Of a DNA stretch of 64,000 nucleotides, positions 11,588 to 35,945 are shown in pieces. Where the stretch lies: UHGV virus genome UHGV-0144373; one strand, 5' to 3'. Position numbers and translations under genes: made by a program. The notes under the pieces are model-generated. The model had not been told where the DNA came from. It did no database searches and saw only the letters and a list, made by a program, of their open reading frames with translations. Numbering within the stretch: the stretch's first letter is position 1; each line of letters begins with the position of its first letter. The DNA is from a virus.

Positions 11588-11601
11588 AACTTGACAAGGT
11601 G

Positions 11602-11985
11602 ATGTGGGTCTTGATAGGCTTACATCACCTTTTTATTTGGAGTTACATTATGGACTTGTGGCTTTATGTAGCAGTTTGTGGGATTGTATGTCTGATAATC
11701 TTATTTATTCTTGGAATAATGCGATTTAGAGACATCATACAGTCAGATTTTTTGCCTGAGTTTGCCATGATGGTTGGAGTTATTGCACTTTGTGTCTTGG
11801 CGGTGTTCTATTCATACAAAACTGTGATACGGATGAAGGCAAACAATTGTGTAAAAACTCATCAACATCGTGAGGTTACTTATTTTGTGAGTGTACTTAG
11901 TGGGAACACCACTGTACTTGTCCCACAAACTTCTGTAGAGTATCTTTACACATGTGATAATGGTAAAACTATATGGTGGAATTAA
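11602..11985 (+). CDS. membrane protein (hypothetical)
   Basis: Two or three predicted TM helices; ATG11602. Confidence 0.4.
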   Translation: MWVLIGLHHLFIWSYIMDLWLYVAVCGIVCLIILFILGIMRFRDIIQSDFLPEFAMMVGVIALCVLAVFYSYKTVIRMKANNCVKTHQHREVTYFVSVLSGNTTVLVPQTSVEYLYTCDNGKTIWWN

Positions 11986-11987
11986 CA

Positions 11988-12188
11988 ATGACAACAATCT
12001 TAAAGGTATTGACACCCATACTACACATAGTAATCTTCTTCTTTGGTGTTAGTGTTATGGTATGGGGTTTTTCAGACCCACAATGGAATTTCTCATATCA
12101 TGGTAAGATGGATTTATGGTCATGCTTCAAACCATTTTTAGGGTTAGCTATAGCATTCAGTGCATTACCAACTAAGGCGAGATTATGA
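11988..12188 (+). CDS. small membrane protein (hypothetical)
   Basis: ATG11988 after GGTGGA; hydrophobic N-terminus. Confidence 0.3.
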   Translation: MTTILKVLTPILHIVIFFFGVSVMVWGFSDPQWNFSYHGKMDLWSCFKPFLGLAIAFSALPTKARL

Positions 12189-12580
12189 TTAAGTTGAACC
12201 AAAAACAGTTAGAGTGGATTAAAGATTACGCCTCAGAGTGTGGCTCTTGCGAAAAGAATCACGTAAGATATTCAACATTCCATACGACCTTCACATTGTA
12301 CATCAGCGACAACGTTCTAAGTGATTCTGTAGAAGATGGTGTAGCATTGCCTAATGAATTGCTTGACAAATTAGCTGTAGTCACTGGAACTTGGTCTGAA
12401 GAAGACGGTCATGAACTATCTAACGATGTTGCCTTCTACAGTCTTGAAAACATTATGAATCCAGAGTACATTATGCTAATGACTTGTGCACAAGACTGTG
12501 TGCCATTACAAAACTTTATTAAAGAGCACTGTGAAGAGTTTATTACTAAACAGGTTCCTTGTCAGGTGGTATTTGAATGA
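12185..12580 (+). CDS. hypothetical protein
   Basis: ORF with AAGGCGAG SD; Cys-rich; no motif. Confidence 0.4.
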   Translation: MIKLNQKQLEWIKDYASECGSCEKNHVRYSTFHTTFTLYISDNVLSDSVEDGVALPNELLDKLAVVTGTWSEEDGHELSNDVAFYSLENIMNPEYIMLMTCAQDCVPLQNFIKEHCEEFITKQVPCQVVFE

Positions 12581-12876
12581 GCAAAACAATTCGAAGAAAA
12601 GGTTTAAAGAACGTTCATGGACTTTATGAGTGGAGAAATGAGGTACGTAACAGAGAAAATGCTTCAGAGGTCTACTACCACTCTGATATGATGTCCAGAA
12701 AAGGTGGCTTTTACGACTTCACAAGTCAGCCTTGTAGAGAAATTAAGAAGGCTACTAAACGTCTTACAAGAACACAAATAAGGCAGCTTTCTAAGACATC
12801 CTTCTTAGATGAAGACTTTGACATTGATAGTAAGTCTCCAAAGAAAGCTGCTAAGAACACTTATATGTATTGGTGA
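12577..12876 (+). CDS. hypothetical basic protein
   Basis: ATGA overlap with upstream gene. Confidence 0.4.
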   Translation: MSKTIRRKGLKNVHGLYEWRNEVRNRENASEVYYHSDMMSRKGGFYDFTSQPCREIKKATKRLTRTQIRQLSKTSFLDEDFDIDSKSPKKAAKNTYMYW

Positions 12877-12885
12877 GGTAACTAG

Positions 12886-13371
12886 ATGAATTACATGGAG
12901 ATTAGACCATTTGACACAGCTAATGGTGAAGGGGTTCGTGTAAGCCTCTTCGTAGCTGGTTGTAAGCATCACTGTGAAGGCTGCTTTAACAGGGAGTCTT
13001 GGAAGTTTAATGCTGGTAAAGAGTTTACTTATGCAAACCTCTATGGAATCATCCAGCTAATGGGTGATAATGCTATCAGTGGGTTGTCAATACTTGGTGG
13101 AGAACCTCTGGATGATAGAAATATTCGAGAGGTCACCAATATATGCAAACGTATTAAAACTATTTATCCAGAGAAATCTATATGGCTCTGGACAGGTTTT
13201 CAACTACACGAAAAAATTCACCTAGATGTGATGAAATATGTTGACGTGGTGATTGATGGTAAGTATGATTCATCTAAACCCACAGTTAAACCATATCGTG
13301 GTTCTGATAACCAAAACCTCTGGAGAAAAGAGTATGGGTGGCAAGGTGATTGTCAGTGGAGAGCCGAGTAA
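12886..13371 (+). CDS. nrdG: anaerobic RNR activating protein (radical SAM)
   Basis: 161 aa; CKHHCEGC = CX3CX2C radical-SAM motif; follows nrdD. Confidence 0.8.
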   Translation: MNYMEIRPFDTANGEGVRVSLFVAGCKHHCEGCFNRESWKFNAGKEFTYANLYGIIQLMGDNAISGLSILGGEPLDDRNIREVTNICKRIKTIYPEKSIWLWTGFQLHEKIHLDVMKYVDVVIDGKYDSSKPTVKPYRGSDNQNLWRKEYGWQGDCQWRAE

Positions 13372-13495
13372 GTCTCGTCATAAAGTAGGTTATCGGTAAA
13401 GGACACTTTACAATGTTCTACAGAACAAACTTAACCGTTTGTGTCACTGAAAAAGAACTTAAAACATTTTGTGAAAATATTGAGAGAGATACGAA

Positions 13496-13753
13496 ATGGG
13501 ACTCTGGAACAGTTTTAAATCAAGAGTAAAAGCAGCACTAGCCTCATTAGGTATGCTCACTGGCGTTGATGTGACTCATCTTATGCAGAACTTTAAGATG
13601 GATGAGAAGCTGGCTAATGAGATTATGAAAAGTATCTATGTAGGCCGTGGTAAAGGTGGTAAGAAACAAGCCCACCGTCCGTCTGGTGCAGCAGCTATTA
13701 AACGAGCAGCTAAGAAAGCTCGTAACCGTAAACGTAATAAGAAGGCTAAATAA
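13496..13753 (+). CDS. hypothetical protein with basic C-terminus
   Basis: 85 aa; C-terminal K/R-rich tail. Confidence 0.4.
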   Translation: MGLWNSFKSRVKAALASLGMLTGVDVTHLMQNFKMDEKLANEIMKSIYVGRGKGGKKQAHRPSGAAAIKRAAKKARNRKRNKKAK

Positions 13754-13755
13754 TC

Positions 13756-14076
13756 ATGAGCAAAGTTTATAACACTCGTAAATTACAGATTTTCGTACTG
13801 TGCCAGTTTATGGCTAAAGAATACAACTTCTACTATTGTGGTACAGGTTTTATTAGCGACGATGATGGTTCATACCTACCATTCAAAGAAGCTGTAAAAC
13901 TCTTTAATGAAGAGAAAAGCTCTAAGAAAGATATTGAAAAGGTTAAGCTAACCTACAGTAAGAAAGATAAGAAAATTATCTGCCTAGATAACTTTGTAAA
14001 AGTTACTGGAGAAGCAAAAGAGTTTATGGATGAGAGTGAGATTTCATTCACAAGCATCTTGAAAGTAGCTCAGTAA
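13756..14076 (+). CDS. hypothetical protein
   Basis: ORF; no motif. Confidence 0.4.
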   Translation: MSKVYNTRKLQIFVLCQFMAKEYNFYYCGTGFISDDDGSYLPFKEAVKLFNEEKSSKKDIEKVKLTYSKKDKKIICLDNFVKVTGEAKEFMDESEISFTSILKVAQ

Positions 14077-14087
14077 ACAGATACTAT

Positions 14088-14118
14088 AAGGGAACTGTAA
14101 AGGTTCCCTTTTTATTTT
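14088..14118 (+). terminator. rho-independent terminator
   Basis: AAGGGAAC-loop-GGTTCCCTT then TTTTATTTT. Confidence 0.5.
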
Positions 14119-14127
14119 GGAGATGAT

Positions 14128-14643
14128 ATGTATCTGTCAAACCTGAAACGTTCTGCTGCAATGTCAGTGTTAAGACTCAGCTTTGAGGAACGTCAAGAGT
14201 TCATTGACTCCCACCAATACGACCCTTCCAACTCGAATCACATGATACTCTGGAATCGTGAGAGTACTCGTGAAAGAGCACTATTCCGCTATTACCCACA
14301 CTACACTATAGATAACCTGTATGAATTGTTTGTTGTGAAGAACACCATTACAGTGCTCAATCAACTTTGCAGATACACAGGTAGTCAATCCTTCACATTA
14401 GGCCACCACAAACCTGTTACAAAGGGTGGTGAGCATCACTGTGCAAACTGGTTTATCCAGACTAAACTTGATAACCAGAAGCAGGGAGATAACCTTCTAA
14501 GCACACCTAAGATGACCTACGAAGAGCAAGAGAAATATATCAAAAATAATATGCCAGATGTGCTTGACAACAACTATACAGATTTGGCAATATCTCTCCT
14601 GTTGAAGTTCGAGACAGTTTATAGGGCAACTTACAATGGCTAA
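14128..14643 (+). CDS. HNH endonuclease-like protein
   Basis: GHHKPVTKGGEHHCANWFIQTKLDNQKQGD fits the HNH pattern (HH...GG...N...N..K). Confidence 0.5.
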   Translation: MYLSNLKRSAAMSVLRLSFEERQEFIDSHQYDPSNSNHMILWNRESTRERALFRYYPHYTIDNLYELFVVKNTITVLNQLCRYTGSQSFTLGHHKPVTKGGEHHCANWFIQTKLDNQKQGDNLLSTPKMTYEEQEKYIKNNMPDVLDNNYTDLAISLLLKFETVYRATYNG

Positions 14644-14914
14644 AGAGAAGTGGGAGATTTTACCATTAGTCAGTGAAGGCGGTAATGGTTGCGAAATGTA
14701 CATGATACGTGGTCATGTTCCAGAACCAATTGCACTTGAGATGGTAAACAACTTTACAGATGGCTCTTACAAAGACTTAGGGGAGCCAACTATAAAGCAG
14801 CAATGGGTAAAGCCTGTACCAGACAGCACAGGTGGCTGTAGTGTACTTTATCACGTTGTAGACCCTGCAAAATGCAAATCTGCAATGGCAGTAACAAACG
14901 TAACTTTTGATTGA
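14636..14914 (+). CDS. hypothetical protein
   Basis: ORF overlapping the HNH gene end. Confidence 0.4.
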   Translation: MAKEKWEILPLVSEGGNGCEMYMIRGHVPEPIALEMVNNFTDGSYKDLGEPTIKQQWVKPVPDSTGGCSVLYHVVDPAKCKSAMAVTNVTFD

Positions 14915-14923
14915 GAGAAAATT

Positions 14924-15379
14924 ATGATTTTTTGCAGCTTCCAAAAAAGAATTATTGAGATTCTATACAATAAGTTTGGGACAGATAACACATTTGACTC
15001 AAATGAAGCTATTGAAGCCCTACAAGAAGGAAGTGATTATATCAAAAAACAGCCAATAGCAAACATCAGGTACTACTTGACTCAGATGAGAAAGTGGGGT
15101 GTGCTCATCGTGGTAGGACAGATTAAGCAACAAGGGAGGATGCTCATCAACCAATTAAACAGAGGTTTTATTGAGAAGCACATTCAGCTAGACTATTTAC
15201 TTAAAGAGCCACGAAACCAACGTGAAGAGCAGCAAAAAGACTTAAGTGGTGGTGTAGGTGTGTCTCCAGACATAAAATTCTTTATTGGTGAGTTGATGTT
15301 TGATACACTCCAAGATGCTGTTGAACACTGCAAAAAGTATATTATCAAAGTAAAACGTGCAAAAATTATTTGGGAGTAA
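14924..15379 (+). CDS. paralog family protein, subtype A (copy 1)
   Basis: Starts MIFCSFQKRIIEILYNKFGTDNTFDSNEAIE; ends AVEHCKKYIIKVKRAKIIWE; homologous to 15801-16265. Confidence 0.5.
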   Translation: MIFCSFQKRIIEILYNKFGTDNTFDSNEAIEALQEGSDYIKKQPIANIRYYLTQMRKWGVLIVVGQIKQQGRMLINQLNRGFIEKHIQLDYLLKEPRNQREEQQKDLSGGVGVSPDIKFFIGELMFDTLQDAVEHCKKYIIKVKRAKIIWE

Positions 15380-15383
15380 TAAC

Positions 15384-15779
15384 ATGTTTGAGCTTCTGAA
15401 GGTTCTGTATATAAATTTTGGCTATGATAAAACATTTTCTGGCTCACAACTAACTAAGGTTTTTAATAAATATCTACCACATGCTTCAATCAGGGATAAA
15501 GCTAATTGGTCTCACAGATTACGTAAAAGTGGGTATATTAGCGTTGTTGGGGCGACAGGCTTTAATAATGAGTATCTTATGAGAATCAATGAAAGCAAAG
15601 CTAAAAATGTGCTTTTAAATTGTAATGACTATCAACAAAAGGATGAAGAGGTCAGTGTAGGTGAAGTAGGGTACTTCATAGGTGACATACACTTTACCAG
15701 TATGGAGGCAGCAGTTGAGCATTGTAAGAGAACGGTTATCCAAACAAAAAGAAAGCGTATTGTTTGGGAAGAAGTTTAA
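15384..15779 (+). CDS. paralog family protein, subtype B (copy 1)
   Basis: ATG15384 (MFELLKVLYINFGYDKTF); shared C-terminal EHCK...K(R/K)xK(I/V)(I/V)WE motif; homologous to 16270-16650. Confidence 0.5.
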   Translation: MFELLKVLYINFGYDKTFSGSQLTKVFNKYLPHASIRDKANWSHRLRKSGYISVVGATGFNNEYLMRINESKAKNVLLNCNDYQQKDEEVSVGEVGYFIGDIHFTSMEAAVEHCKRTVIQTKRKRIVWEEV

Positions 15780-15800
15780 ACATTTGATTAGGAATACACT

Positions 15801-16265
15801 ATGATTTTTTGCAATTTACAGAAGCACGTAATAGAGATTTTATACAAAACCTTCGGGACAGAAAACACTTTTGACTCTAACGAAGCAATTGACACATTAA
15901 GAGAGAATAGCCTTTTTATACGAGGCCAGTCAATCAGTAATACCCGTGGGTATCTGACAATGTTAAGACAGTCTGGTGTACTGCTGACTGTAGGGCAGGT
16001 AAAAAGCAAAGGTAGACTAAGTATTAATCAATTAAATCGAGCCTTTATGGAGAAGCACATACAACTGTCAAGGATGCTAGATAATACGTGTGAAGAGTTG
16101 GGGAGTCCACAAAAAGCGAGTTCATCTGATGTTAAAGATGTGGATGCACAACCTGACGTAAGATACTTTATTGCTGATGTTATGTTTAAAACACTCGATG
16201 AAGCTATTGAGCACTGCAAAAAGCATCTTATTAAAGTTAAACATGCAAAAGTTATTTGGGAGTGA
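15801..16265 (+). CDS. paralog family protein, subtype A (copy 2)
   Basis: MIFCNLQKHVIEILYKTFGTENTFDSNEAID...EHCKKHLIKVKHAKVIWE. Confidence 0.5.
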   Translation: MIFCNLQKHVIEILYKTFGTENTFDSNEAIDTLRENSLFIRGQSISNTRGYLTMLRQSGVLLTVGQVKSKGRLSINQLNRAFMEKHIQLSRMLDNTCEELGSPQKASSSDVKDVDAQPDVRYFIADVMFKTLDEAIEHCKKHLIKVKHAKVIWE

Positions 16266-16269
16266 TGCT

Positions 16270-16650
16270 ATGATTGAACTGTTAAAAGTCCTATATAATA
16301 AGTTTGGTTATGATAAAACTTTTACTTGTTCACAGATACGTAGTATCCATGATAAGGAATTTCCAAATGTATCCAAGACAAACAAGTCAACTCGGTTCAA
16401 TCGTCTTCGCCAGAGGGGTTACATTAAAATAGTTGGATACAAGAATAACTCTTTCGAGTATGTAATGCAGATTAATAGAGAAGTGTCAAGTAAAATACTT
16501 GAAGAGCCAACAGCCGAAGAACAAAAGATACAAGACGGTGAAGTTCGCTTCTTTGTGGAGAAGGAAAGTTTTGGGTCAATAGATGAAGCTATCGAATATT
16601 GTAAAAAGAACATTATTCAGGTAAAGCGTAGAAAGGTTATTTGGGAATAA
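16270..16650 (+). CDS. paralog family protein, subtype B (copy 2)
   Basis: ATG16270 (MIELLKVLYNKFGYDKTF...EYCKKNIIQVKRRKVIWE). Confidence 0.5.
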   Translation: MIELLKVLYNKFGYDKTFTCSQIRSIHDKEFPNVSKTNKSTRFNRLRQRGYIKIVGYKNNSFEYVMQINREVSSKILEEPTAEEQKIQDGEVRFFVEKESFGSIDEAIEYCKKNIIQVKRRKVIWE

Positions 16651-26881: not shown

Positions 26882-27667
26882 ATGGGTATTGTAAAAATAA
26901 TCAATGGTGATATCTTTGCCGCATTTGATAAAGGTAAGTTTGACATCATCGGTCACGGTTGCAACTGTATGAATTTAATGGGTGCAGGTATTGCAGCAAC
27001 TATTTCTAAGCGTTATCCAAAAGTGTATGATACTGACACAGAAGTTTACCTGTTTGCAGGCGGCATCCGTCACAAACCCTGTGAAAATTTACTGGGTAAT
27101 TTCTCCGTAGCACGTTTAAAACAAGGCCGTATAGCTAACCTTTACACCCAACTTCATACTGGTAAAGATGCCCGATACAGTGCTTTAGAGTCATCTTTGA
27201 AACAGCTTAACAGATACTGTGAAGTTAACCAGTTGAAGAAAGTTGGTCTACCTATGATTGGTGCAGGTATTGGTGGACTCGACCCTCAAGCCGCCACAGT
27301 TATCATTAATCAGGTGATGAAAAGTGTAGATGTTTATCTGTATGTCTACGAAGGAGAGATGTACCACAAGTTACTCTCAGGTTGGAAGAACTACTGTGAA
27401 CCAGAATACTTTGCAGGTGTAGTAACGTTCACAGATAATACAGTTACCCTCTTCAGACGAAGAAAAGGTAAGATACATCAAAGTAACCCTCCGGTTGAAA
27501 AGATGTCTCTAAGTAACGCTCTAGTTACCCACCTGTCGAAGAGCAATCACAGAATTGCTGTGACATTTGGTAGTGATGCCGATGCTTACATTTATGCAAG
27601 AACTGATGAGGATATCGAGGCAATCTTCTCTTCACCAGAAGTTACCTTCTTAGACGCAAAGAACTAA
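26882..27667 (+). CDS. macrodomain protein (TARG1/OARD1-like), possible ADP-ribose hydrolase
   Basis: GDIFAAFDKGKFDIIGHGCNCMNLMGAGIA and VGLPMIGAGIGGLDP match the macrodomain signature pattern; about 110-aa C-terminal extension. Confidence 0.55.
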   Translation: MGIVKIINGDIFAAFDKGKFDIIGHGCNCMNLMGAGIAATISKRYPKVYDTDTEVYLFAGGIRHKPCENLLGNFSVARLKQGRIANLYTQLHTGKDARYSALESSLKQLNRYCEVNQLKKVGLPMIGAGIGGLDPQAATVIINQVMKSVDVYLYVYEGEMYHKLLSGWKNYCEPEYFAGVVTFTDNTVTLFRRRKGKIHQSNPPVEKMSLSNALVTHLSKSNHRIAVTFGSDADAYIYARTDEDIEAIFSSPEVTFLDAKN

Positions 27668-27730
27668 GAAACTCTGTAGGATATTCACAATAGGCTAAGC
27701 CTTTCTTATCTGGTAAATTTTTCAGGTAAG

Positions 27731-27920
27731 GAGGGCTTTTTCATTTCAGATTTGTGCAGGTAGAGTTCTGTAGAGGAATCTATAGAGAAAATTTTGAACT
27801 CCAAAGAGCTTTTTCATTTTCAAACTGTGCAGGTAATCTCCAAAGAGCTTTTTCATTTTCAAAACGTGCAGAGAAAAATCAGGTCGGGCAAGAAAAATCA
27901 TTTTAGAATTGTGCAGGTAG
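27731..27920 (+). repeat. four direct repeats (about 33 bp; iteron-like)
   Basis: 27731-27763, 27803-27836, 27841-27873, 27888-27920 share (AAAGAGC)TTTTTCATTTTCAAA-N-GTGCAGGTA; AT-rich stretch follows. Confidence 0.6.
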
Positions 27921-28094
27921 GTGGGTGTAGGTGGGGATGTCGCCATTTCTCACAAGGCTACCACATCCGAAAAGAAAAGTCAACAGAAAAATTTGTAGCG
28001 GATTGAAAAATAATTCTTGATTTGTTTTCTGTTTTGTGGTATTCGCGTGCGCCCGTTTCATTACATTTTGCCAAAAATATTTTTAAAATTTTTC

Positions 28095-28123
28095 TTGACT
28101 CCTCGAACGGGTTTTTATAGTAT
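28095..28123 (+). promoter_or_regulatory. sigma70-like promoter
   Basis: TTGACT, 17-nt spacer, TAGTAT. Confidence 0.4.
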
Positions 28124-28171
28124 TTGCATCAGACGGGGCGACAAGCTCCCTTCCTAAAATGGAAAGTCTAG

Positions 28172-28259
28172 AAAGTACTTTACAAGGGGCTTAAAAGTTG
28201 TTACCTTAAGCCCCAGATAAAGAGCTTTACCAACAACCTTAAACTAGGAGAATATGAAA
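28172..28259 (+). promoter_or_regulatory. class-A cassette element (copy 1)
   Basis: AAAGTACTTTACAA, hairpin GGGGCTTAA-N-TTAAGCCCC, AGATAAAGAGCTTTACC, then SD GGAGA and ATG. Confidence 0.6.
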
Positions 28260-28643
28260 ATGGCATATCGTGCACCTAAATTCATCAATAAAGATAATTT
28301 CCGCAATGCACTGGAAAAATCACTTGATGAGAATTTTACAGGTCAGATTATTGTTGTTCACGCATTCAATTTTAAGTATGATATTAACGGGAATAAAATC
28401 AATCATTACACGGCAACAATGTTAGATGGCACGCTTTCAAGTGAAAAAGCCGTACTAAATGCGCTTGCAGGACGTGGTAAAAACCTGATAAGATGCGATA
28501 AGAGACGTTATCAGGGCGGCGCATATGGTTATGATGATACTGTTTATCATCTTGAAAACATGGGCTATCAAGTAGAAAAAGCTGGAGTGTCGCAGATTAT
28601 TGGTCGTGATGGTTATGTAACTATCTTCAAAATTAACAAATAA
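28260..28643 (+). CDS. hypothetical small protein (cassette gene a)
   Basis: ATG28260 aligned with the conserved SD-ATG context. Confidence 0.45.
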   Translation: MAYRAPKFINKDNFRNALEKSLDENFTGQIIVVHAFNFKYDINGNKINHYTATMLDGTLSSEKAVLNALAGRGKNLIRCDKRRYQGGAYGYDDTVYHLENMGYQVEKAGVSQIIGRDGYVTIFKINK

Positions 28644-28730
28644 AGTACTTTACAAGGGGCTTATAGTTCGATAAAGTAAGCCCCAGATAAAGAGCTTTAC
28701 CACTAAATCCTAAATTGGAGAATCTGAAAA
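28644..28730 (+). promoter_or_regulatory. class-A cassette element (copy 2)
   Basis: Same element; palindrome TAAAGTACTTTA includes the upstream stop codon. Confidence 0.6.
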
Positions 28731-28988
28731 ATGGCTATTATTAAAAACGTTGTAATTACTGCAAAAACTCGTGATGACGCTCGCGTTATGGCTAAAAAGT
28801 TATGTGGGAAAGTGGTTGACAACGGGAAAAAATCTGCTGTAAGATGGGGCGTCAAGGTTGATAAACATTTAACCTTAAGACGCAGTTCAAACAACCTTTT
28901 TAAAGGTGTAAAATCACTCGGTAAAGTGAACGTTTTTACCAAAAAAGGCTATAAAATGCACTTATCATTAACTGGCAATTTAATCTGA
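28731..28988 (+). CDS. hypothetical small protein (cassette gene b)
   Basis: ORF after class-A element. Confidence 0.45.
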   Translation: MAIIKNVVITAKTRDDARVMAKKLCGKVVDNGKKSAVRWGVKVDKHLTLRRSSNNLFKGVKSLGKVNVFTKKGYKMHLSLTGNLI

Positions 28989-29076
28989 TAAAGTACTTTA
29001 CAAGGGGCTTAAAAGTTGTTACCTTAAGCCCCAGATAAAGAGCTTTACCACTAAATCCTAAATTGGAGATTCTAAA
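28989..29076 (+). promoter_or_regulatory. class-A cassette element (copy 3)
   Basis: Same element. Confidence 0.6.
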
Positions 29077-29589
29077 ATGAAAACTGTAGACGCTACCTTT
29101 GAAGTTGTAAAAGAAAAATTTTCAATTATCTATGAAGCGGTGAATTGCTACGAACCAAGCCATAATCTTGATGATTGGAAGTTTACAGATGACCATCAAG
29201 GCGGTGTGACTATTAAAAACCCCAACTATCGTCATAATGCCTTTAAATATGCAATCCCTTTAAATTATAGCCTTAAGCAGCTTTCTAGTGACTATGCAAA
29301 GCAAGGCCGGGAAAATCCATCCCGTGAGGCTTACATCAGCTTACAAAGAGAACTGGAAAGGGATTTAGAGGCTTCAGAATACAACCTTGCTGCAAAAGTT
29401 ATTGATGCAAATGGTCAAACAATTTTAGACAGTTTTTATATTGGTTACGCTTTCGATTGGTGCTATAGCGACGGCGTCGATTTAGAGGATAGACTAAAAG
29501 AGGAAGTGAGCAATTCAGGCGCAGAATCTGAAGTTATGGAACAACTAGAAGCCTTAAAAGATTCAGTGATGAATATCTTTAAGAACTAA
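29077..29589 (+). CDS. hypothetical protein (cassette gene c)
   Basis: 170 aa. Confidence 0.45.
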   Translation: MKTVDATFEVVKEKFSIIYEAVNCYEPSHNLDDWKFTDDHQGGVTIKNPNYRHNAFKYAIPLNYSLKQLSSDYAKQGRENPSREAYISLQRELERDLEASEYNLAAKVIDANGQTILDSFYIGYAFDWCYSDGVDLEDRLKEEVSNSGAESEVMEQLEALKDSVMNIFKN

Positions 29590-29681
29590 ATAGATTTCTT
29601 TACACGGGGTTATCAAGCTGATAAGATAGCCCCAGATAAAGAGCTTTATTTAAATCAACCCTTAAACTAGGAGATTCTAAA
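29590..29681 (+). promoter_or_regulatory. class-A cassette element (variant copy 4)
   Basis: Variant hairpin GGGGTTATC...GATAGCCCC, then AGATAAAGAGCTTTA and class-B-like CTTAAACTAGGAGATTCTAAA. Confidence 0.5.
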
Positions 29682-29978
29682 ATGAAATTATCAAATAAAG
29701 TTAGGGAAAATCTAAGCAAGTTACTCAACAAAATCGATTTTATCGAGACCTCAAGAAATACTCATGAGGTTATGGAATGGTTACACGGGAAAATAAATGG
29801 CCGCCGTGTAGTGATTTGTTTATGGAATAGTTGCAGGGAGTATAAAAAACCTGTATTACAAATTAATGTTTATGATGATACTTTTAAAAGTCCAGTAAAG
29901 TCTAAAAGCGATTTATTAGAATCTTATGAGATATCTGTAAATGGTAAAATCTCACAAAAAGAGGCAATACCATGCTGA
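29682..29978 (+). CDS. hypothetical small protein (cassette gene d)
   Basis: ORF. Confidence 0.45.
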   Translation: MKLSNKVRENLSKLLNKIDFIETSRNTHEVMEWLHGKINGRRVVICLWNSCREYKKPVLQINVYDDTFKSPVKSKSDLLESYEISVNGKISQKEAIPC

Positions 29979-30304
29979 TGACTGGTGTCACCGCAATTAT
30001 AGCCATTTTCGCGCTCTATAAGGCATATAAAGCCTATAATCTGGCAAGTAAGGCAATCACGCAGCAGGTTAGTAATAGCCTTGTAGAGAGCTTTCTAGAG
30101 CGTTTAAACGATGAACAAATAAAACGGTTAGAAATGAGCTTCAGATTTCAATCAAAAACTTATCAAATCAGCGACATTTTCAAAGATGATTTTCAGCTTG
30201 TCGATGATTATAACTCTCTGATAAATGCTTTAAATATCAGTGACTTAAAAGACTACTACGCTGTAATTGTCCAAGAAATGAGCAAACGAAAACAAAATGC
30301 TTGA
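29972..30304 (+). CDS. hypothetical small membrane protein (cassette gene e)
   Basis: N-terminal TM helix; AAAGAGG SD; no private element. Confidence 0.4.
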   Translation: MLMTGVTAIIAIFALYKAYKAYNLASKAITQQVSNSLVESFLERLNDEQIKRLEMSFRFQSKTYQISDIFKDDFQLVDDYNSLINALNISDLKDYYAVIVQEMSKRKQNA

Positions 30305-30393
30305 CACTGGTTTTTAGATAAATTAAATTACACATCAACGGGGAGGAAATGACCCCCCCACTAAATAAAACCCTTAAACTAGGAGATTCAAAA
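30301..30393 (+). promoter_or_regulatory. class-B cassette element (copy 1): promoter plus 5' stem-loop plus conserved SD
   Basis: TTGACA-17-TAAATT, hairpin GGGGAGG-AAATGA-CCCCCCC, leader ACTAAATAAAACCCTTAAACTAGGAGATTCAAAA. Confidence 0.55.
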
Positions 30394-30666
30394 ATGTATG
30401 CTACTAACAATGGTCGTACTCTAAATGTCACTCTGCGTCACTATGTAGACGGTGTGATGCACTTTGAGGATTTACGGGCTGAACAATATATCTTAGATTG
30501 GCAAGTCGCAGGACTCCAAAAAACTGTTACGGGATACGGTAAAAAGATTCCAACCAGTTGGAAAGTTCACTACAAAGGACGTTTGCGCAGAATTTATCAG
30601 GATGTTTGTAGCAATAGCGCATCAAGTTACATCATGGTAAAAGGTAAAAAGCTGCATTTAGTTTAA
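30394..30666 (+). CDS. hypothetical small protein (cassette gene f)
   Basis: ATG30394 after conserved SD; upstream in-frame ATG30349 lies in the hairpin loop and is not taken as the start. Confidence 0.45.
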   Translation: MYATNNGRTLNVTLRHYVDGVMHFEDLRAEQYILDWQVAGLQKTVTGYGKKIPTSWKVHYKGRLRRIYQDVCSNSASSYIMVKGKKLHLV

Positions 30667-30751
30667 AGTACTTTACAAGGGGCTTAAAAGTTGTTACCTT
30701 AAGCCCCAGATAAAGAGCTTTACCACTAAATCCTAAATTGGAGATTCAAAA
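30667..30751 (+). promoter_or_regulatory. class-A cassette element (copy 5)
   Basis: Same as copy 1. Confidence 0.6.
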
Positions 30752-31156
30752 ATGGCTATTAATAATCGTGAATTATCAATCTTAAAAGCACGTTTGACCA
30801 TTAATAGAATTAATGTTATGACATCAGCAGCGCCAGATGAAACCTTATATAATATTATTGGAAAGATTCAAAGTGTTATCTTAGACGTTGAAAACGTGAA
30901 AAACTCATTAACTGACGTTGCAGCAGGTATCACGCTAGACGGTGCACAATACGAAATGGCTGACATGTTGGGCAAATCTAAGGTAATGAATAAAGAGCTG
31001 GATTTAAAAATTTTTAGGTTCGCCGTGAAAGTATGGCTATCCGTCGAGTATGATGCTAATTATGCAATCGCTGACTTTTTCGCCACTTGGTTACAACGTA
31101 ATTTGACAAATCACGATTTTCGTGGTATCTGCGATGCAATTTATGCAGAACTCTAA
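30752..31156 (+). CDS. hypothetical protein (cassette gene g)
   Basis: 134 aa. Confidence 0.45.
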   Translation: MAINNRELSILKARLTINRINVMTSAAPDETLYNIIGKIQSVILDVENVKNSLTDVAAGITLDGAQYEMADMLGKSKVMNKELDLKIFRFAVKVWLSVEYDANYAIADFFATWLQRNLTNHDFRGICDAIYAEL

Positions 31157-31165
31157 AAAATTTTC

Positions 31166-31258
31166 TTGACGCTGGTTTTTAGATAGATTAAATTACACAT
31201 CAACGGGGAGGGTATGACCTCCCCACTAAATAAAACCCTTAAACTAGGAGATTCTAAA
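31166..31258 (+). promoter_or_regulatory. class-B cassette element (copy 2)
   Basis: TTGACG-17-TAAATT; perfect hairpin GGGGAGG-GTATGA-CCTCCCC. Confidence 0.55.
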
Positions 31259-31462
31259 ATGGCTATTATTAACGGTTTAAACATTGAAACCACACACATC
31301 AAAGATATTAAAGTCGGTGATACAGTTCTCTTTCACGGCGTAGAAAAAACCGTCACTGCAAAGGATATAAAAGAGGATTCTTTCATGGGTAGGACTCTTT
31401 TCGGTGATTCTTATTGCTTAGGTTACCTTGCAGTTTTAAAAGTTGTCAAAAATAACAAATAA
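31259..31462 (+). CDS. hypothetical small protein (cassette gene h)
   Basis: ATG31259 after conserved SD. Confidence 0.45.
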   Translation: MAIINGLNIETTHIKDIKVGDTVLFHGVEKTVTAKDIKEDSFMGRTLFGDSYCLGYLAVLKVVKNNK

Positions 31463-31547
31463 AGTACTTTACAAGGGGCTTATAGTTCGATAAAGTAAGC
31501 CCCAGATAAAGAGCTTTACCACTAAATCCTAAACTGGAGATTCTAAA
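31463..31547 (+). promoter_or_regulatory. class-A cassette element (copy 6)
   Basis: Same as copy 2. Confidence 0.6.
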
Positions 31548-32090
31548 ATGAAATGCTTTCACGGTACTACTCAAGAAAATTTCCTCAACCTGATTAATAA
31601 CGGTGATAAACCATCAGGTGCATGGAATTGTTCGGATATGGACGGCAATTTTTACGTGTACCCAGAGAATAAAATCTATGGCGACGATGAGGAAGAGATA
31701 ATCTCTGAAGGTATCCAACAAGCTATGGGAAATGCCGCTATCACCGCAGCTTTCCAGATGAAAACTCAAAACATTGTTATCTTGGAACTTGATATTCCAG
31801 AGGATGAGTTGAATGATGATTTCTCTTGCGATAATATGTCGAGCGTGGCAAGTTTTACAGAATACTTCGATTTGAATTGGATTAAAAAGGTTTACGTAAC
31901 CGAGTTTAATGCGATGTTTTCGCCTTTTTGTCTTCCTTCATTGGATAACCCAAATTTGAACTATCTTGATGAGTCTCTGGAGCTTCTTGCGAAAAGCGTT
32001 CAACAGGCGGACAGTATTCAGGTTTTTTGTGACATCATGGACACACTAACGGGAAACATCGCAGAGGGAGATTTAAAGAGCTTTTTCTGA
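31548..32090 (+). CDS. hypothetical protein (cassette gene i)
   Basis: 180 aa. Confidence 0.45.
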   Translation: MKCFHGTTQENFLNLINNGDKPSGAWNCSDMDGNFYVYPENKIYGDDEEEIISEGIQQAMGNAAITAAFQMKTQNIVILELDIPEDELNDDFSCDNMSSVASFTEYFDLNWIKKVYVTEFNAMFSPFCLPSLDNPNLNYLDESLELLAKSVQQADSIQVFCDIMDTLTGNIAEGDLKSFF

Positions 32091-32156
32091 AAACCTATGC
32101 AATCACCTTATAAACACTAATCAGCCCCTTGTAGGGGCTTTTAGGGGGCTTAAATC

Positions 32157-32390
32157 ATGCTTATAACCGTTTATCTCATCCTTTCTATTTGTAATGGCCA
32201 TTCATGCGACTTTAAAGGGCTTGAAGCGTTTACAGGAAGTAAAGAAAACGCTATTCAGGTTTGTCAGATAGCAAGACAAGACTACCCCGCCAGTGATGAT
32301 ATTCAATGCTACTTTAAAACAGAAGATGACGATGTAATCTATTTTGACAGCGTTGACGGTCAATATGAAATTATCATAGAAAAAGACTAG
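32157..32390 (+). CDS. hypothetical small protein (cassette gene j)
   Basis: ORF after hairpin AGCCCCTTGTAGGGGCT. Confidence 0.4.
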   Translation: MLITVYLILSICNGHSCDFKGLEAFTGSKENAIQVCQIARQDYPASDDIQCYFKTEDDDVIYFDSVDGQYEIIIEKD

Positions 32391-32480
32391 ACAAGCATGA
32401 TAAAAATCTGTAAATTACTAATTAACGGGGAGGAAATGACCCCCCCACTAAATAAAACCCTTAAACTAGGAGATTCAAAA
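32388..32480 (+). promoter_or_regulatory. class-B cassette element (copy 3)
   Basis: TAGACA-17-TAAATT; hairpin GGGGAGG-AAATGA-CCCCCCC. Confidence 0.5.
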
Positions 32481-32822
32481 ATGGCTTATGTAACCGTAAT
32501 TACCGATAAAGCTGGTTCATCTTGGTCAACTCAAGTAAGTGATAAGATGACACCTATGCAGTGCCTAAAATACTTTGAGCAATGGAATAAAGGCGAGGAA
32601 ACAAGCCCCTTTCAAGTGATGCAGATTATTCATGTAGACAATGAAGGGAATAAAACGGTTTTAAGTAGTGAGTACTACGCAAACCGCTTCGAAACGAGAA
32701 GTAAAGCAATGAAGCTTCTACGTGAATCCGGTTACTCCCATATCGCCGCACTAATCTGGGATGACCTGCTAAAAAACCAACGTATCAGCTATGTAAAACC
32801 TGAAAAAATATTCATCAGTTAA
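32481..32822 (+). CDS. hypothetical protein (cassette gene k)
   Basis: ATG32481 after conserved SD. Confidence 0.45.
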   Translation: MAYVTVITDKAGSSWSTQVSDKMTPMQCLKYFEQWNKGEETSPFQVMQIIHVDNEGNKTVLSSEYYANRFETRSKAMKLLRESGYSHIAALIWDDLLKNQRISYVKPEKIFIS

Positions 32823-32956
32823 TCAATAACTTACAAAAAACTTCTAAAAAAGTGTTGACAATACCCCTTGACATTGGTAATGTTGTTCGAGGGGGTTTAT
32901 CTAAAAGGGATTAACTTAAAAGATTCTTTATAGATAAGCTTAAAAAAAAAAATTGC

Positions 32957-33047
32957 TTGCAATCAGATATCAAAACAAGTAAATTACTAATCAACGGGAG
33001 GGATGACCTCCCCACTAAATAAAATCCTTAAACTAGGAGATTCAAAG
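32957..33047 (+). promoter_or_regulatory. class-B cassette element (copy 4)
   Basis: TTGCAA-17-TAAATT; hairpin GGGAGG-GATGA-CCTCCCC. Confidence 0.5.
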
Positions 33048-33578
33048 ATGAACAAGTTCAAAGCTATCAATTACATTCGTTCAAATGCTGTAATGTCTAA
33101 ACCTGTTAAAGATACCTATGAATTTCGCTGCAATGGTGTACACTTTGCAACCATCACTAAATCAGAAAAAGGGGCTTATTACGTTCATCGTCGTAATGTT
33201 GCAACCGTTGTAGTCTCTCATTTTATGCAAGCTATAGCGGAGTTATTACCGCTATTCTTAGAAATTTACTTAGATGAGTGTAAAAACGTTCACAAACACG
33301 TTAAAAGCCTTTTAAACAGTTATAAAATGGCTTACGAGCGTTCTATCAAGTTTTTAAACAAGTTCTATAAAGCCCCTGTAAATACTGTTTCAATGGCTTA
33401 CAATGTAAGCGGTGAGTTGGTTAGTCTCTTCGAAGTGGAAGAAATCGAACTATATAACTCACGTCCTGATGGTTACGCTAAGACACTGGGGGAAGGCTTA
33501 TCTTTCAATATCAAGAACTTAGAAAAAACTCTAAAAGATATTGAAAAAGATATTGACGAGACAATCAAAAATCTGTAA
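33048..33578 (+). CDS. hypothetical protein (cassette gene l)
   Basis: ATG33048 after conserved SD. Confidence 0.45.
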   Translation: MNKFKAINYIRSNAVMSKPVKDTYEFRCNGVHFATITKSEKGAYYVHRRNVATVVVSHFMQAIAELLPLFLEIYLDECKNVHKHVKSLLNSYKMAYERSIKFLNKFYKAPVNTVSMAYNVSGELVSLFEVEEIELYNSRPDGYAKTLGEGLSFNIKNLEKTLKDIEKDIDETIKNL

Positions 33579-33643
33579 ATTGTCAATCAACGGGGAGGCG
33601 ATAACCTCCCCACTAAATAAAGTCCTAAACTGGAGTTATCAAG
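33553..33643 (+). promoter_or_regulatory. class-B cassette element (copy 5)
   Basis: TTGACG-17-TAAATT; hairpin GGGGAGG-CGATAA-CCTCCCC (no ATG in loop). Confidence 0.5.
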
Positions 33644-33907
33644 ATGGAAAACGTAGAATTAACCACACTTTTACAAATTGCAACCGACAAAGAAAACGTA
33701 GCTTTATTTCACCGCATCGAAAGTGATTTGTTCAATGGTGAAATCATCAAAGAGTCTTACGAGGTTGTTGGATTCAAAGATGGTAAAACATTTGGATTCT
33801 TTGACCTCGAAAAAGGCAACGCTGTTACAAAATATGATGTTTTATCTTGTGAGATTCTTACAAAATACAACGAAAAAAGGCTTGCAACATACGCCAATAT
33901 GCAGTAA
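33644..33907 (+). CDS. hypothetical small protein (cassette gene m)
   Basis: ORF. Confidence 0.45.
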   Translation: MENVELTTLLQIATDKENVALFHRIESDLFNGEIIKESYEVVGFKDGKTFGFFDLEKGNAVTKYDVLSCEILTKYNEKRLATYANMQ

Positions 33908-33972
33908 ATTACTAATCAACGGGAGGGATGACCTCCCCACTAAATAAAATCCTTAAACTAGGAGATTCAAAA
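33883..33972 (+). promoter_or_regulatory. class-B cassette element (copy 6)
   Basis: TTGCAA-17-TAAATT; hairpin GGGAGG-GATGA-CCTCCCC. Confidence 0.5.
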
Positions 33973-34221
33973 ATGGCAACTATCCGCGCTACTGTTAACG
34001 AGTTCGGTTTTTCCTCTCTGGATGTTAAATTTGACATTGCAGGCACTGATAACGCCTTTGAAATGGTGAAAGGTCTTATCAGTCAGACCATCAAAGATTA
34101 TAATCCTTCGGATGAGTTCTGGGAGGAAACAAAACAAGAAGTTCTCAAGGATGGTTATACTTATCACTATTGGGGCGATTTAATTGTTTCCCTGTACTAC
34201 GATAAACAAGGTTACAACTAA
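33973..34221 (+). CDS. hypothetical small protein (cassette gene n)
   Basis: ATG33973 after conserved SD. Confidence 0.45.
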   Translation: MATIRATVNEFGFSSLDVKFDIAGTDNAFEMVKGLISQTIKDYNPSDEFWEETKQEVLKDGYTYHYWGDLIVSLYYDKQGYN

Positions 34222-34261
34222 TCAACGCAGCGGGGCTAAACAGCCCCAGATACCTTTATAC

Positions 34262-34284
34262 AGCCCCTCATAGGGGCTTTTTTA
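34262..34284 (+). terminator. rho-independent terminator
   Basis: AGCCCCT-CAT-AGGGGCT then TTTTTT; preceded by a second hairpin GGGGCT-AAAC-AGCCCC (34232-34247). Confidence 0.55.
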
Positions 34285-34289
34285 CGTCT

Positions 34290-35945
34290 TATCAAATCCC
34301 TTATACAACCCTTTCCCTTTCCTTTCCAGAATCTTTCCACTGATTCGATAAAGCCTATCTCATACCTTAAAAAGCAATAACTCTATAGCCTATTCTATAG
34401 CCTTTTATCAAATCCACTAATTGGCATTGTTACCAATCCCTTAAATATAAGCCCATAACCCGAAAGGGAAGGGCAACCCCTAAAACGCTCTATAACGCTC
34501 TATAACAGCCTTATCAACCTAACTTAATGGATTGCATTACCTCACCTTAAAAAGCTCTTTACAGGGCTTTATAGAGCCTTAAAAGAACCTTATAAGGGTA
34601 TAAGCTTTATCATCTCGTTAGTATTCTTGTGAACTACTAAAAAGGGTTTGATAGTTCCTTTAAAGTATGTTATAGGGGCTATAAAGTTACTTCAAAGTAA
34701 CGTAAAAGTTGCTTAAAAGTTACGTAAATGCTAGCCACCTTTAACATTTTCTTAACAATTTCTTAACAATCCCTACATAGTTATACTTGTTAGCAACTTG
34801 TCAGCCCCTTGTTAAATCTCTGTTAAGACCATGTAAAAGCCTTGTAAGAGTCTTTGACATAGCCTTTAAAGCTCCTGTAAAGCCCTATAAAGAGCTATCC
34901 ATACAGTTGAGGGGTAAATACTAGGGAGATACTAAAAGAGCCTATAAAGAGCTATAGAGAGCTTTTAAGAGGTATGTTTAAAGAATCACTAAAAGGGAAA
35001 GGGAACGATAAGAAAGAGATAGTGACCATGTTAACAGTTTGTTAAAAAGATTAAACACTTGTTAGGAACTTGTTAATTATCTTAATTGGTATTGTTACCA
35101 ATCCCTACAAAATAACTCTTTAAAATTAACTATATAGCTCTTGTTAGTCATCTATTAAGAATCTGTAAAGACTATTCAGCACTTGTTAGAAAACTGTTAC
35201 ACTCTTGTTAGTTCTGTTAAGAATCTGTTAAGACCTTTAAAGAGATGTTAAGACGATGTGAGAACTGTTAAGAGATTGTTAAGGATATTTTAAAATTTTG
35301 CAAAGGGGGTGTTAAGGAGCTGTTAAGGGCTACCAAGCAGATATACATCCTAATCAGATATTTTTCAGTTCCTTCAAAGACCCTAAAAAATGACTTGATA
35401 GTCCTATTTTATAAAAATTTTAAAATTCTGAATAATTACCTATACAGTCTTTTAAAAATACAGGTAGAAACAGGCTTATAAGATACCTTGTTAGTACCGT
35501 GTTAGACCTTGTGAGATAAGGTCTGTAAAGATATTCCTGTTAAGTTTGTTAAAACAGTCTATATAGAGGCTTAGTAATACCTAGTGAACACCTATAGAGG
35601 GTATCATAGCTAACCTAATGGGTTACTGTTAAGTAACACAGGTAACCTAGAGATTAAGAGGTGTATAGGAGCTTCTAAGAGGGTATAGAGAGATGGTTAA
35701 GGTGATTGTATAGGTTGTTAAGAAGGCTTGTTAGAGGGCTATTTAGAAGGGTTATACAGATGGCTATTAAGACCACTAGATAGTTACTAAGATACTATAT
35801 AGTACTATATAACTATATAGAGAGTAAGATTAAGAAGGTTGTTAAGAAGGATAGATATTTTATTCACATATGATGGTGACCCAGAGGTTGGGACAACCGA
35901 TAAAATTTTATAAAAAATATAAATTTCGTAAATTTTACTCAATAA
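34290..35945. repeat. 1.65-kb ORF-free, AT-rich region dense in short repeats
   Basis: No ORF of 60 aa or more on either strand; many copies of TGTTAAG/CTTGTTAG, TAAAGAGCT and TATAGAGAGCTT; duplicated 23-mer AATTGG(C/T)ATTGTTACCAATCCCT at 34419-34441 and 35084-35106. Confidence 0.7.

Follow-up and report, generated by a model that had tools for sequence, protein, structure and literature searches.

A block of small + strand genes located after rIIA/rIIB in Felix O1-like phage genomes carries a recurrent stem-loop beside its promoters, which raises the question of what this structure does. We addressed this question in the virus genome UHGV-0144373, a 64-kb stretch of DNA (here called the window) that is, by its sequence matches, a Felixounavirus (Felix O1-like) genome. 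Six copies of the promoter and stem-loop, termed class-B elements, lie at positions 30301 to 33972. A prior interpretation made from the letters alone (the sequence-only reading) described the stem as a Shine-Dalgarno (SD)-like sequence paired with an anti-SD-like one, and it offered three possible functions: stabilization of the 5′ end, a standby or decoy for ribosomes, and an alternative start under regulation. Here, we conclude that the class-B hairpin is a real, family-wide, promoter-proximal feature that is ordinary in kind, its special-looking properties being by-products. With about even confidence, we interpret it as a 5′-terminal stabilizing stem-loop on early mRNAs, set within a composite promoter cassette.

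Related elements have been recorded before. The Felix O1 genome paper gives repeats of 39 bp and 57 bp as direct repeats, without comment, and the GenBank record of phage wV8 also tags them as direct repeats and labels some class-B hairpins as complement-strand Rho-independent terminators (10379-10399). By reverse transcription-PCR, Felix O1 genes behind class-B-type elements appear at 5 min (ORF21 and ORF22) or 25 min (ORF19 and ORF23). How transcription passes the many terminators was left unexplained by the Felix O1 authors, as was temporal control.

Results

Composite organization of the class-B elements

The segment from 30301 to 33972 matched 252 phage records, nearly all of them Felixounavirus of Escherichia, Salmonella, and Shigella (top identity, 91.7%); Citrobacter and Shigella Mooglevirus also matched, at 60 to 80% identity. 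The six class-B elements announced by the sequence-only reading are all present in this segment and share one layout (6/6): a −35 hexamer, 17 nt, the −10 hexamer TAAATT, 6 nt, C/TAAC, an inverted repeat, an A-rich leader, GGAG, and ATG. After the inverted repeat, the leader reads CCACTAAATAAA(A/G)(C/T)CC(T)TAAACT(A)GGAG, then 8 nt and ATG, so spaced at the real start in all six copies. The hairpins begin 10 nt past the −10 hexamer, with energies of −10 to −16 kcal/mol. The cassettes are as follows, with Z-scores (z) for folding of 62-nt leaders relative to dinucleotide shuffles.

30301-30396, + strand, cassette 1: −35 TTGACA 30301-30306; −10 TAAATT 30324-30329; CAAC 30336-30339; hairpin 30340-30359, GGGGAGG-AAATGA-CCCCCCC with an A.C mismatch, −10.1 kcal/mol, loop ATG 30349-30351; SD GGAG 30382-30385; ATG 30394-30396; leader fold −12.5 kcal/mol, z −1.2, stem pair probabilities ~0.78.
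31166-31261, + strand, cassette 2: −35 TTGACG 31166-31171; −10 31189-31194; CAAC 31201-31204; hairpin 31205-31224, GGGGAGG-GTATGA-CCTCCCC, perfect 7 bp, −16.3 kcal/mol, loop ATG 31214-31216; SD 31247-31250; ATG 31259-31261; leader z −2.4, stem pair probabilities 1.0.
32388-32483, + strand, cassette 3: −35 TAGACA 32388-32393; −10 32411-32416; TAAC 32423-32426; hairpin 32427-32446, identical in sequence to copy 1 including the A.C mismatch, loop ATG 32436-32438; SD 32469-32472; ATG 32481-32483; leader z −1.0.
32957-33050, + strand, cassette 4: −35 TTGCAA 32957-32962; −10 32980-32985; CAAC 32992-32995; hairpin 32996-33012, GGGAGG-GATGA-CCTCCC, 6 bp, −12.3 kcal/mol, loop ATG 33003-33005; SD 33036-33039; ATG 33048-33050; leader z −2.5.
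33553-33646, + strand, cassette 5: −35 TTGACG 33553-33558; −10 33576-33581, its TAA doubling as the stop codon of the upstream gene; CAAC 33588-33591; hairpin 33592-33611, GGGGAGG-CGATAA-CCTCCCC, perfect 7 bp, no ATG, −14.9 kcal/mol; SD 33632-33635; ATG 33644-33646; leader z −3.3.
33882-33975, + strand, cassette 6: −35 TTGCAA 33882-33887; −10 33905-33910; CAAC 33917-33920; hairpin 33921-33937, identical in sequence to copy 4, 6 bp, loop ATG 33928-33930; SD 33961-33964; ATG 33973-33975; leader z −2.8.

The perfect GGGGAGG/CCTCCCC pairing that had been ascribed to all six elements is found in two of them (copies 2 and 5); two others have a 6-bp GGGAGG/CCTCCC stem, and the remaining two pair GGGGAGG with CCCCCCC through the A.C mismatch. 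The exact GGGGAGG/CCTCCCC pattern matched the window twice and its shuffles never, and the relaxed pattern GGGAGG-N3-9-CCYCCC gave six + strand matches (all copies) where none were expected. A covariance-model search of the 64-kb window returned exactly the six copies. In partition function calculations, stem pair probabilities were 0.78 to 1.0 across copies. The folding check that had been suggested came out in favor of four leaders, which were more stable than their shuffles (z of −2.4 to −3.3), but not of mismatch copies 1 and 3 (z ~−1). No family was found in a Pfam scan of nine proteins near the class-B elements or in an Rfam scan of 27500-35500 at E ≤ 1.

Every leader of class B, and of class A (another type of element, described below), also contains at the same place a weak further hairpin (UCCU-UAAACU-AGGA, at 30375-30388 in cassette 1) that overlaps the real SD. 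Its variants are CCT..CTGG and CCTT..CTAGG, in which insertion of a T is always accompanied by insertion of an A, adding a U-A pair, and partition function calculations have the first two G residues of the real SD mostly paired. This helix could tune translation, or the two variants could simply be linked haplotypes.

A host-type promoter places the hairpin near the predicted 5′ end

Promoters were compared across 70 distinct regions, comprising those of the window and of 21 related loci. Positions T1, A2, and T6 of the −10 hexamer were invariant, TTG of the −35 hexamer stood at exactly 17-nt spacing in 68 regions, and the sequence following the −10 hexamer (6 nt, CAAC, and a run of G) was also invariant. 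Because this −10/−35 signature and its fixed spacing are kept while other positions vary, the class-B promoters can be assigned on sequence grounds to the host sigma70 type. An AT-rich tract upstream of the −35 hexamer is clear at the first promoter of the gene cluster (AAAAATATTTTTAAAATTTTTC); at the other elements, the upstream DNA is coding. The transcript probably starts at the CA of CAAC, whose A lies 7 to 8 nt past the −10 hexamer, which would leave 3 to 4 unpaired nt before the stem.

Hairpin potential is conserved at one position

Among 81 distinct leaders from about 20 relatives in Felixounavirus and Mooglevirus, every one has a hairpin starting 4 to 6 nt into CAAC. The dominant form in the genus, GGGGAGGG-AAUGA-CCUUCCCC, has 8 bp including one G.U pair and differs from the forms in the window. 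Other stems at the same position are GGGGAGG-GAAA/GAGA-CUUCCCC, GGGGC-(8-9 nt)-GCCCC, GGGGU-AAGCAA-GCCCC, GGGC-AAGCAA-GCCC, and GGGA-AACA-UCCC, and GAAA or GAGA tetraloops close several of the Mooglevirus stems. The dimensions of the repeat vary accordingly (total length, 12 to 21 nt; stem, 3 to 8 bp; loop, 4 to 9 nt).

No single argument is stronger than that provided by the cluster's first promoter, which has orthologs in the different phages, with a conserved tract of AT-rich sequence upstream, and is located after a canonical terminator. In the window, it is a seventh promoter, outside the range covered by the sequence-only reading and downstream of the canonical terminator at 27697-27738:

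28095-28149, + strand, seventh promoter, first of the cluster: TTGACT 28095-28100; TAGTAT 28118-28123; CAGAC 28130-28134; hairpin 28135-28149, GGGGC-GACAA-GCTCC, whose stem is not SD-like.

Among phages, this promoter bears at least four unrelated hairpins (GGGC-AAGCAA-GCCC, GGGGU-AAGCAA-GCCCC, GGGA-AACA-UCCC, GGGGC-GACAA-GCUCC, and GGGGAGGG-AAUGA-CCUUCCCC), with the stem always 4 to 6 nt after CA. Since one orthologous promoter carries unrelated hairpins at one position, the comparison argues that hairpin potential has been retained and SD-like sequence has not. In addition, because a canonical terminator precedes the first promoter, there would be little upstream RNA for its hairpin to attenuate.

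Pairing was also asymmetric between strands. Read on the + strand, the stems contain 50 G.U/U.G pairs (48 G.U and 2 U.G), and of 53 distinct sequences, 34 were more stable as + strand folds and 18 as − strand folds. Covariation, which had been proposed as a check, gave only a weak signal: 95.5% of cells were paired in a model-based alignment, compared to 94.5% in shuffles and 95.4% when the partner was slid by +1. Classical covariation is not demonstrable here because arms made of a G-run and a C/U-run pair in any register. A script-built pair table showed the fifth pair as A-U, C-G, G-C, and U.G, and 96% versus 78% pairing at inner positions, in an alignment that is biased by being derived from each sequence's own fold. 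Alignment of 34 leaders with MAFFT followed by RNAalifold left the hairpin unaligned owing to register shifts and returned only the small SD-overlapping helix.

Two further features adjoin the first promoter. At 28095-28262, the leader of the seventh promoter is degenerate (CTTCCTAAAATGGAAAG, lacking GGAG), is followed by no gene, and runs straight into a class-A element, which looks like the scar of a deleted cassette. Between 27740 and 27910, a noncoding stretch after the terminator at 27697-27738, there are four loose direct repeats of ~35 to 40 nt (..AGAGCTTTTTCATTTTCAAA.TGTGCAGGTA..), on which Tandem Repeats Finder made no call.

The SD-like stem and the loop ATG are poorly conserved

The sequence-only reading had counted an ATG in four of the six loops; there are in fact five (30349, 31214, 32436, 33003, and 33928). 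All five are in frame with the downstream gene, as it had said, and open for 15 codons (MTPPLNKTLKLGDSK, MTSPLNKTLKLGDSK, or MTSPLNKILKLGDSK). These in-frame extensions represent about three independent copies, given that copies 1 and 3 are identical, as are copies 4 and 6. The element near 33590 does lack an ATG, with its hairpin at 33592 and its frame shut by TAA. The proposal of the sequence-only reading that the hairpin rather than the peptide is conserved is borne out among relatives: the hairpin is present in 81/81 leaders, the loop ATG in 46/81 (missing from 35), and an ATG that is both in frame and open in only 9/81. The dominant stem is longer by one pair, so that in 28/81 leaders the loop ATG opens a reading frame of six codons (MTFPTK-stop). 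The 15-codon extension in the window is thus an accident of the indel state of this phage, and the loop ATG is incidental. Felix O1 ORF19 (7028-7345), annotated in RefSeq from the loop ATG, is therefore regarded here as an annotation artifact at its start.

The perfect SD/anti-SD match is likewise not what has been conserved, with GGGGC..GCCCC, GGGC..GCCC, and GGGA..UCCC stems occupying the same position. In the partition function, the GGAGG of the stem has an unpaired probability of ~0, except for the mismatched A in copies 1 and 3, and it lies 1 to 2 nt from the loop ATG. The SD look is most likely a by-product of building a stable stem from a G(A)-run and a C(U)-run.

We therefore consider it very improbable that GGGGAGG serves as a decoy, a standby site, or a stabilizer of the STAB-SD type, or that the loop ATG is a regulated start adding 15 aa. 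Most Felixounavirus stems do contain GGAGG, five of the six window loops have an in-frame ATG, and RefSeq begins ORF19 at such a codon. However, standby, decoy, and alternative-start functions are unlikely because the GGAGG is fully paired and too close to the loop ATG; the usual spacing is reportedly 5 to 9 nt. An SD accessible to 16S rRNA, on which STAB-SD, standby, and decoy functions depend, was not found, nor was a conserved open start at a workable SD spacing. The ATG is absent, closed, or out of frame in most leaders, stems without SD likeness fill the same site, and the real start has its own GGAG at 8 nt from ATG. STAB-SD or polypurine stabilizers of Gram-positive systems (cryIIIA and phage SP82) pair with 16S rRNA and must be accessible. 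They share with class B an SD-like purine run near the 5′ end of the message, but the class-B GGAGG is fully paired. To our knowledge, the enterobacterial hosts of the class-B phages lack RNase J.

An involvement of a RegB-type endonuclease acting at GGAG was considered and dropped. The only hint was the note "similar to T4 endoribonuclease RegB" on gp003 of Mooglevirus Mordin, and the notes on the Felix O1 and phiEa21-4 counterparts point instead to T4 Vs.1, from the vs-regB intergenic region.

Indels between phages end within the elements

Two segments of the window are absent from Felix O1, 31264-32411 (three genes) and 33635-33904 (one gene). In each case, the flanking alignments overlap (by 78 bp and 63 bp, respectively) inside one chimeric class-B element, and breakpoints relative to wV8 and Mordin likewise lie within class-A or class-B elements. 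The sequence-only reading, which had recognized the hairpins, thus missed that they belong to composite promoter/stem-loop/ribosome-binding-site cassettes acting as recombination junctions.

Because indels between phages end inside them, the class-B elements resemble the promoter-early stem-loop (PeSL) cassettes of T4-like phages RB49/phi1, PST, and nt-1 (Arbiol 2010, PMC2839356; Comeau 2014, PMC4122927), of which we would call them an analogue and not a member. PeSL stem-loops terminate or attenuate transcription, one of them having cut expression of downstream lacZ as strongly as rrnB T1 (PMC2839356), and PeSL cassettes excise as mini-circles. Like PeSLs, class-B elements are intergenic repeats of ~100 bp with a strong promoter close to the sigma70 consensus, a stable GGGG...CCCC stem-loop beside it, and an SD and ATG at the 3′ end, and both cluster among small ORFan early genes where indels between relatives end in the elements. 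The match thus draws on varied hairpin positions, GGGG..CCCC stems, terminal SD and ATG, and an ORFan neighborhood. In contrast to PeSL-bearing phages, class-B phages are Ounavirinae, and the likeness is one of description rather than of demonstrated sequence homology. Moreover, the class-B stem-loop lies downstream of the predicted start and would hence be transcribed, whereas the five described PeSL subclasses place theirs upstream of, within, or just before the start. In the literature searched, PeSLs were mentioned only in T4-like, cyanophage, or jumbo-phage contexts and never for Felix O1-like phages.

Class-A elements, with TTTACA at ~28179, 28649, 28997, 30672, and 31468, have a TTTACA-17-TAxxxT promoter with a hairpin (GGGGCTTA..TAAGCCCC, or GGGGCUUA..UAAGCCCC) between and over the promoter hexamers, followed by AGATAAAGAGCTTTACC and the common leader. 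Since their predicted start lies after the hairpin, class-A transcripts would lack it. The GCTTTAC of class A is faintly like what we take to be the boxA core. Analogous cassettes with a GGGG..CCCC hairpin inside the promoter occur at 10000-16300 in phiEa21-4 (Kolesnikvirus). There, the hairpin lies between the −35 and −10 hexamers or has the −10 hexamer in its loop, one example being TTGACA-N17 with TTAAAA as the loop hexamer; ATCAAC comes next, and the SD is of the AAGGAA type. By these comparisons, the cassette design appears subfamily-wide while the position of the hairpin shifts.

A noncoding stretch of ~130 nt at 32823-32956 contains two TTGACA hexamers and GGGGGTTTATCTAAAAGGG, and a similar sequence is found upstream of gp029 in Mordin.

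Discussion

We read the observed anatomy, conservation, promoter signature, pairing, and breakpoints as those of cassettes that head early messages with a protective structure, a 5′ stabilizer being the most plausible of the functions proposed previously. Each cassette would combine a host sigma70-type promoter, a short GC-rich stem-loop transcribed from about +4, a leader that is A/U-rich and unstructured, a GGAG SD, and ATG. In mRNA made from its own promoter, the + strand hairpin would leave ~3 to 4 unpaired nt at the 5′ triphosphate end, and so short an end may hinder RppH and 5′-end-dependent RNase E, allowing short early messages to live longer. RppH and RNase E require single-stranded 5′ ends, which accounts for stabilization by 5′ structures (PMC3997798). 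Known stabilizing stem-loops of this kind are those of ompA, papA, and T7 gene 10 (Emory 1992, Arnold 1998, and Mertens 1996, via PMC3997798 and PMC6146998); in the T7 gene 10 case, PMC6146998 (citing Mertens 1996) credits the stem-loop together with an A/U-rich leader with increasing mRNA stability. Class-B leaders have a stable hairpin a few nucleotides from their predicted 5′ end, as in all three, with pair probabilities of 0.78 to 1.0 (and z ~−1 in copies 1 and 3), and, as in T7 gene 10, an A/U-rich leader with a strong SD comes next. They differ in that the stem is shorter (6 to 8 bp) and in that their start and stabilizing effect are predictions. Because it follows the upstream gene's stop codon at a distance of 15 to 55 nt, the same hairpin would also be carried by read-through RNA, where it may work as an insulator or 3′ protector. 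The ~60-nt conserved hairpin plus leader would in addition supply the homology for cassette gain and loss, in the manner reported for PeSLs.

Several points weigh against this interpretation. The 5′-terminal position of the hairpin is predicted from promoter geometry, and a literature search on Felix O1-like phages turned up neither mapped transcript starts nor transcriptomes. On the + strand, copies 1 and 3 did not surpass their shuffles in stability (z of −1.2 and −1.0), and they are more stable on the − strand (−14.5 versus −10.1 kcal/mol). In the covariance-model alignment, only one pair shows change on both sides, and the G.U and strand asymmetry, coming from related sequences, may reflect only a few independent ancestral changes. 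Some orthologous promoters have no hairpin. Finally, in class-A and phiEa21-4 cassettes, a hairpin of similar type (GGGG..CCCC) precedes the predicted start, and a function common to all classes therefore cannot be 5′-end protection.

This last point leads to the main rival explanation, that the hairpin acts on RNA coming from upstream, the role proposed for PeSL stem-loops. It would be an attenuator or terminator, or it would protect the 3′ ends left once the RNA has been processed within the A/U-rich leader, and that it also heads its own transcript would be a secondary matter. We consider this unlikely, though a serious candidate; such a role and one in its own transcript are not mutually exclusive. 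The hairpin is the first structure past each upstream stop, the promoters overlap stops, and the hairpins of class A and phiEa21-4 would exist in read-through RNA only. The rrnB T1-like effect of a PeSL stem-loop on lacZ (PMC2839356) and the puzzle of passage through the many Felix O1 terminators point the same way. However, the stem is followed by ACUAAAUAAA and no U-tract, so that a GC hairpin with a U-tract was not found on the transcribed strand, and a terminator scan made no + strand call (flagging, on the − strand, copies 1 and 2 only). Canonical T-run terminators serve the borders of the cluster (27697-27738 and 34262-34278), and in all the phages the first promoter, right after such a terminator, still has its hairpin at the usual position. 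The wV8 annotation of some copies as Rho-independent terminators of the minus strand is barely credible as an explanation of the structure. The scan calls and the better − strand folding of copies 1 and 3 agree with that annotation, but the neighboring genes are all on the + strand, the family-wide + strand fold is stabler (34 versus 18), the dominant CCTTCCCC variant yields an A.C mismatch on the − strand, and the T-tail is poor. We rejected it on gene orientation and strand asymmetry.

A role at the DNA level, either as a recombination homology patch or protein target or as an operator at which a phage repressor would act on early promoters, appears improbable. Indel breakpoints do fall inside the elements, and a repeat at +5 to +25 occupies a classical operator position. 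However, a repeat of such variable dimensions misfits one dimeric DNA-binding protein, and the operator interpretation was dropped for this reason. The arms of the dominant variant are not complementary as DNA (GGGGAGGG/CCTTCCCC needs G.U), GNRA tetraloops suggest selection on RNA, and homologous recombination requires the conserved leader only, not a hairpin. We likewise regard as quite improbable that a phage-encoded RNA-binding regulator, either a translational repressor or an antiterminator like N acting at boxB, recognizes the hairpin together with its purine-rich loop (RAURA or GNRA) and thereby coordinates the early ORFan genes. One structure does head many early messages, Felix O1 temporal control is unexplained, and the loops GAUGA and GAUAA (Felixounavirus) and GAAA and GAGA (Mooglevirus) could be GNRA-like, a comparison with boxB that we take as a lead only. 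As in lambda nut sites, the hairpin is small and promoter-proximal, with purine-rich, partly GNRA-like loops. In contrast to nut sites, where boxA lies upstream of a boxB with a conserved loop, the 3 to 4 nt before the class-B hairpin leave no room for boxA, stems and loops are too variable (AAUGA, CGAUAA, AAGAUAGAA, AACA, and GACAA among the loops), the Rfam scan gave no match, and no N-like or other candidate protein was identified. A broader version, also distinctly improbable in our view, is that the hairpin is a shared RNA handle through which a phage regulator or a host factor (for example, a ribosome sensing the SD/anti-SD duplex) switches early ORFan messages jointly. If true, this would give Felix O1-like phages, which lack known transcription-timing factors, a posttranscriptional early-to-middle switch.

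Returning to the 5′ stabilizing stem-loop within a promoter cassette, this functional reading of the Felix O1 repeats is the first and would make them a PeSL analogue outside the T4-like phages, a finding of modest interest. The idea of an SD/anti-SD duplex with an alternative start, which lay behind their apparent unusualness, fails on scrutiny. Felix O1-like phages are widely used in Salmonella and E. coli typing and biocontrol, yet little has been described of their promoters or timing control. The cassette reading would provide a promoter map for the early ORFan region and correct start codons now placed at the loop ATG, such as that of Felix O1 ORF19. It would also account for the sites at which gene cassettes are gained and lost, extending PeSL-style modular shuffling past the T4-like phages.

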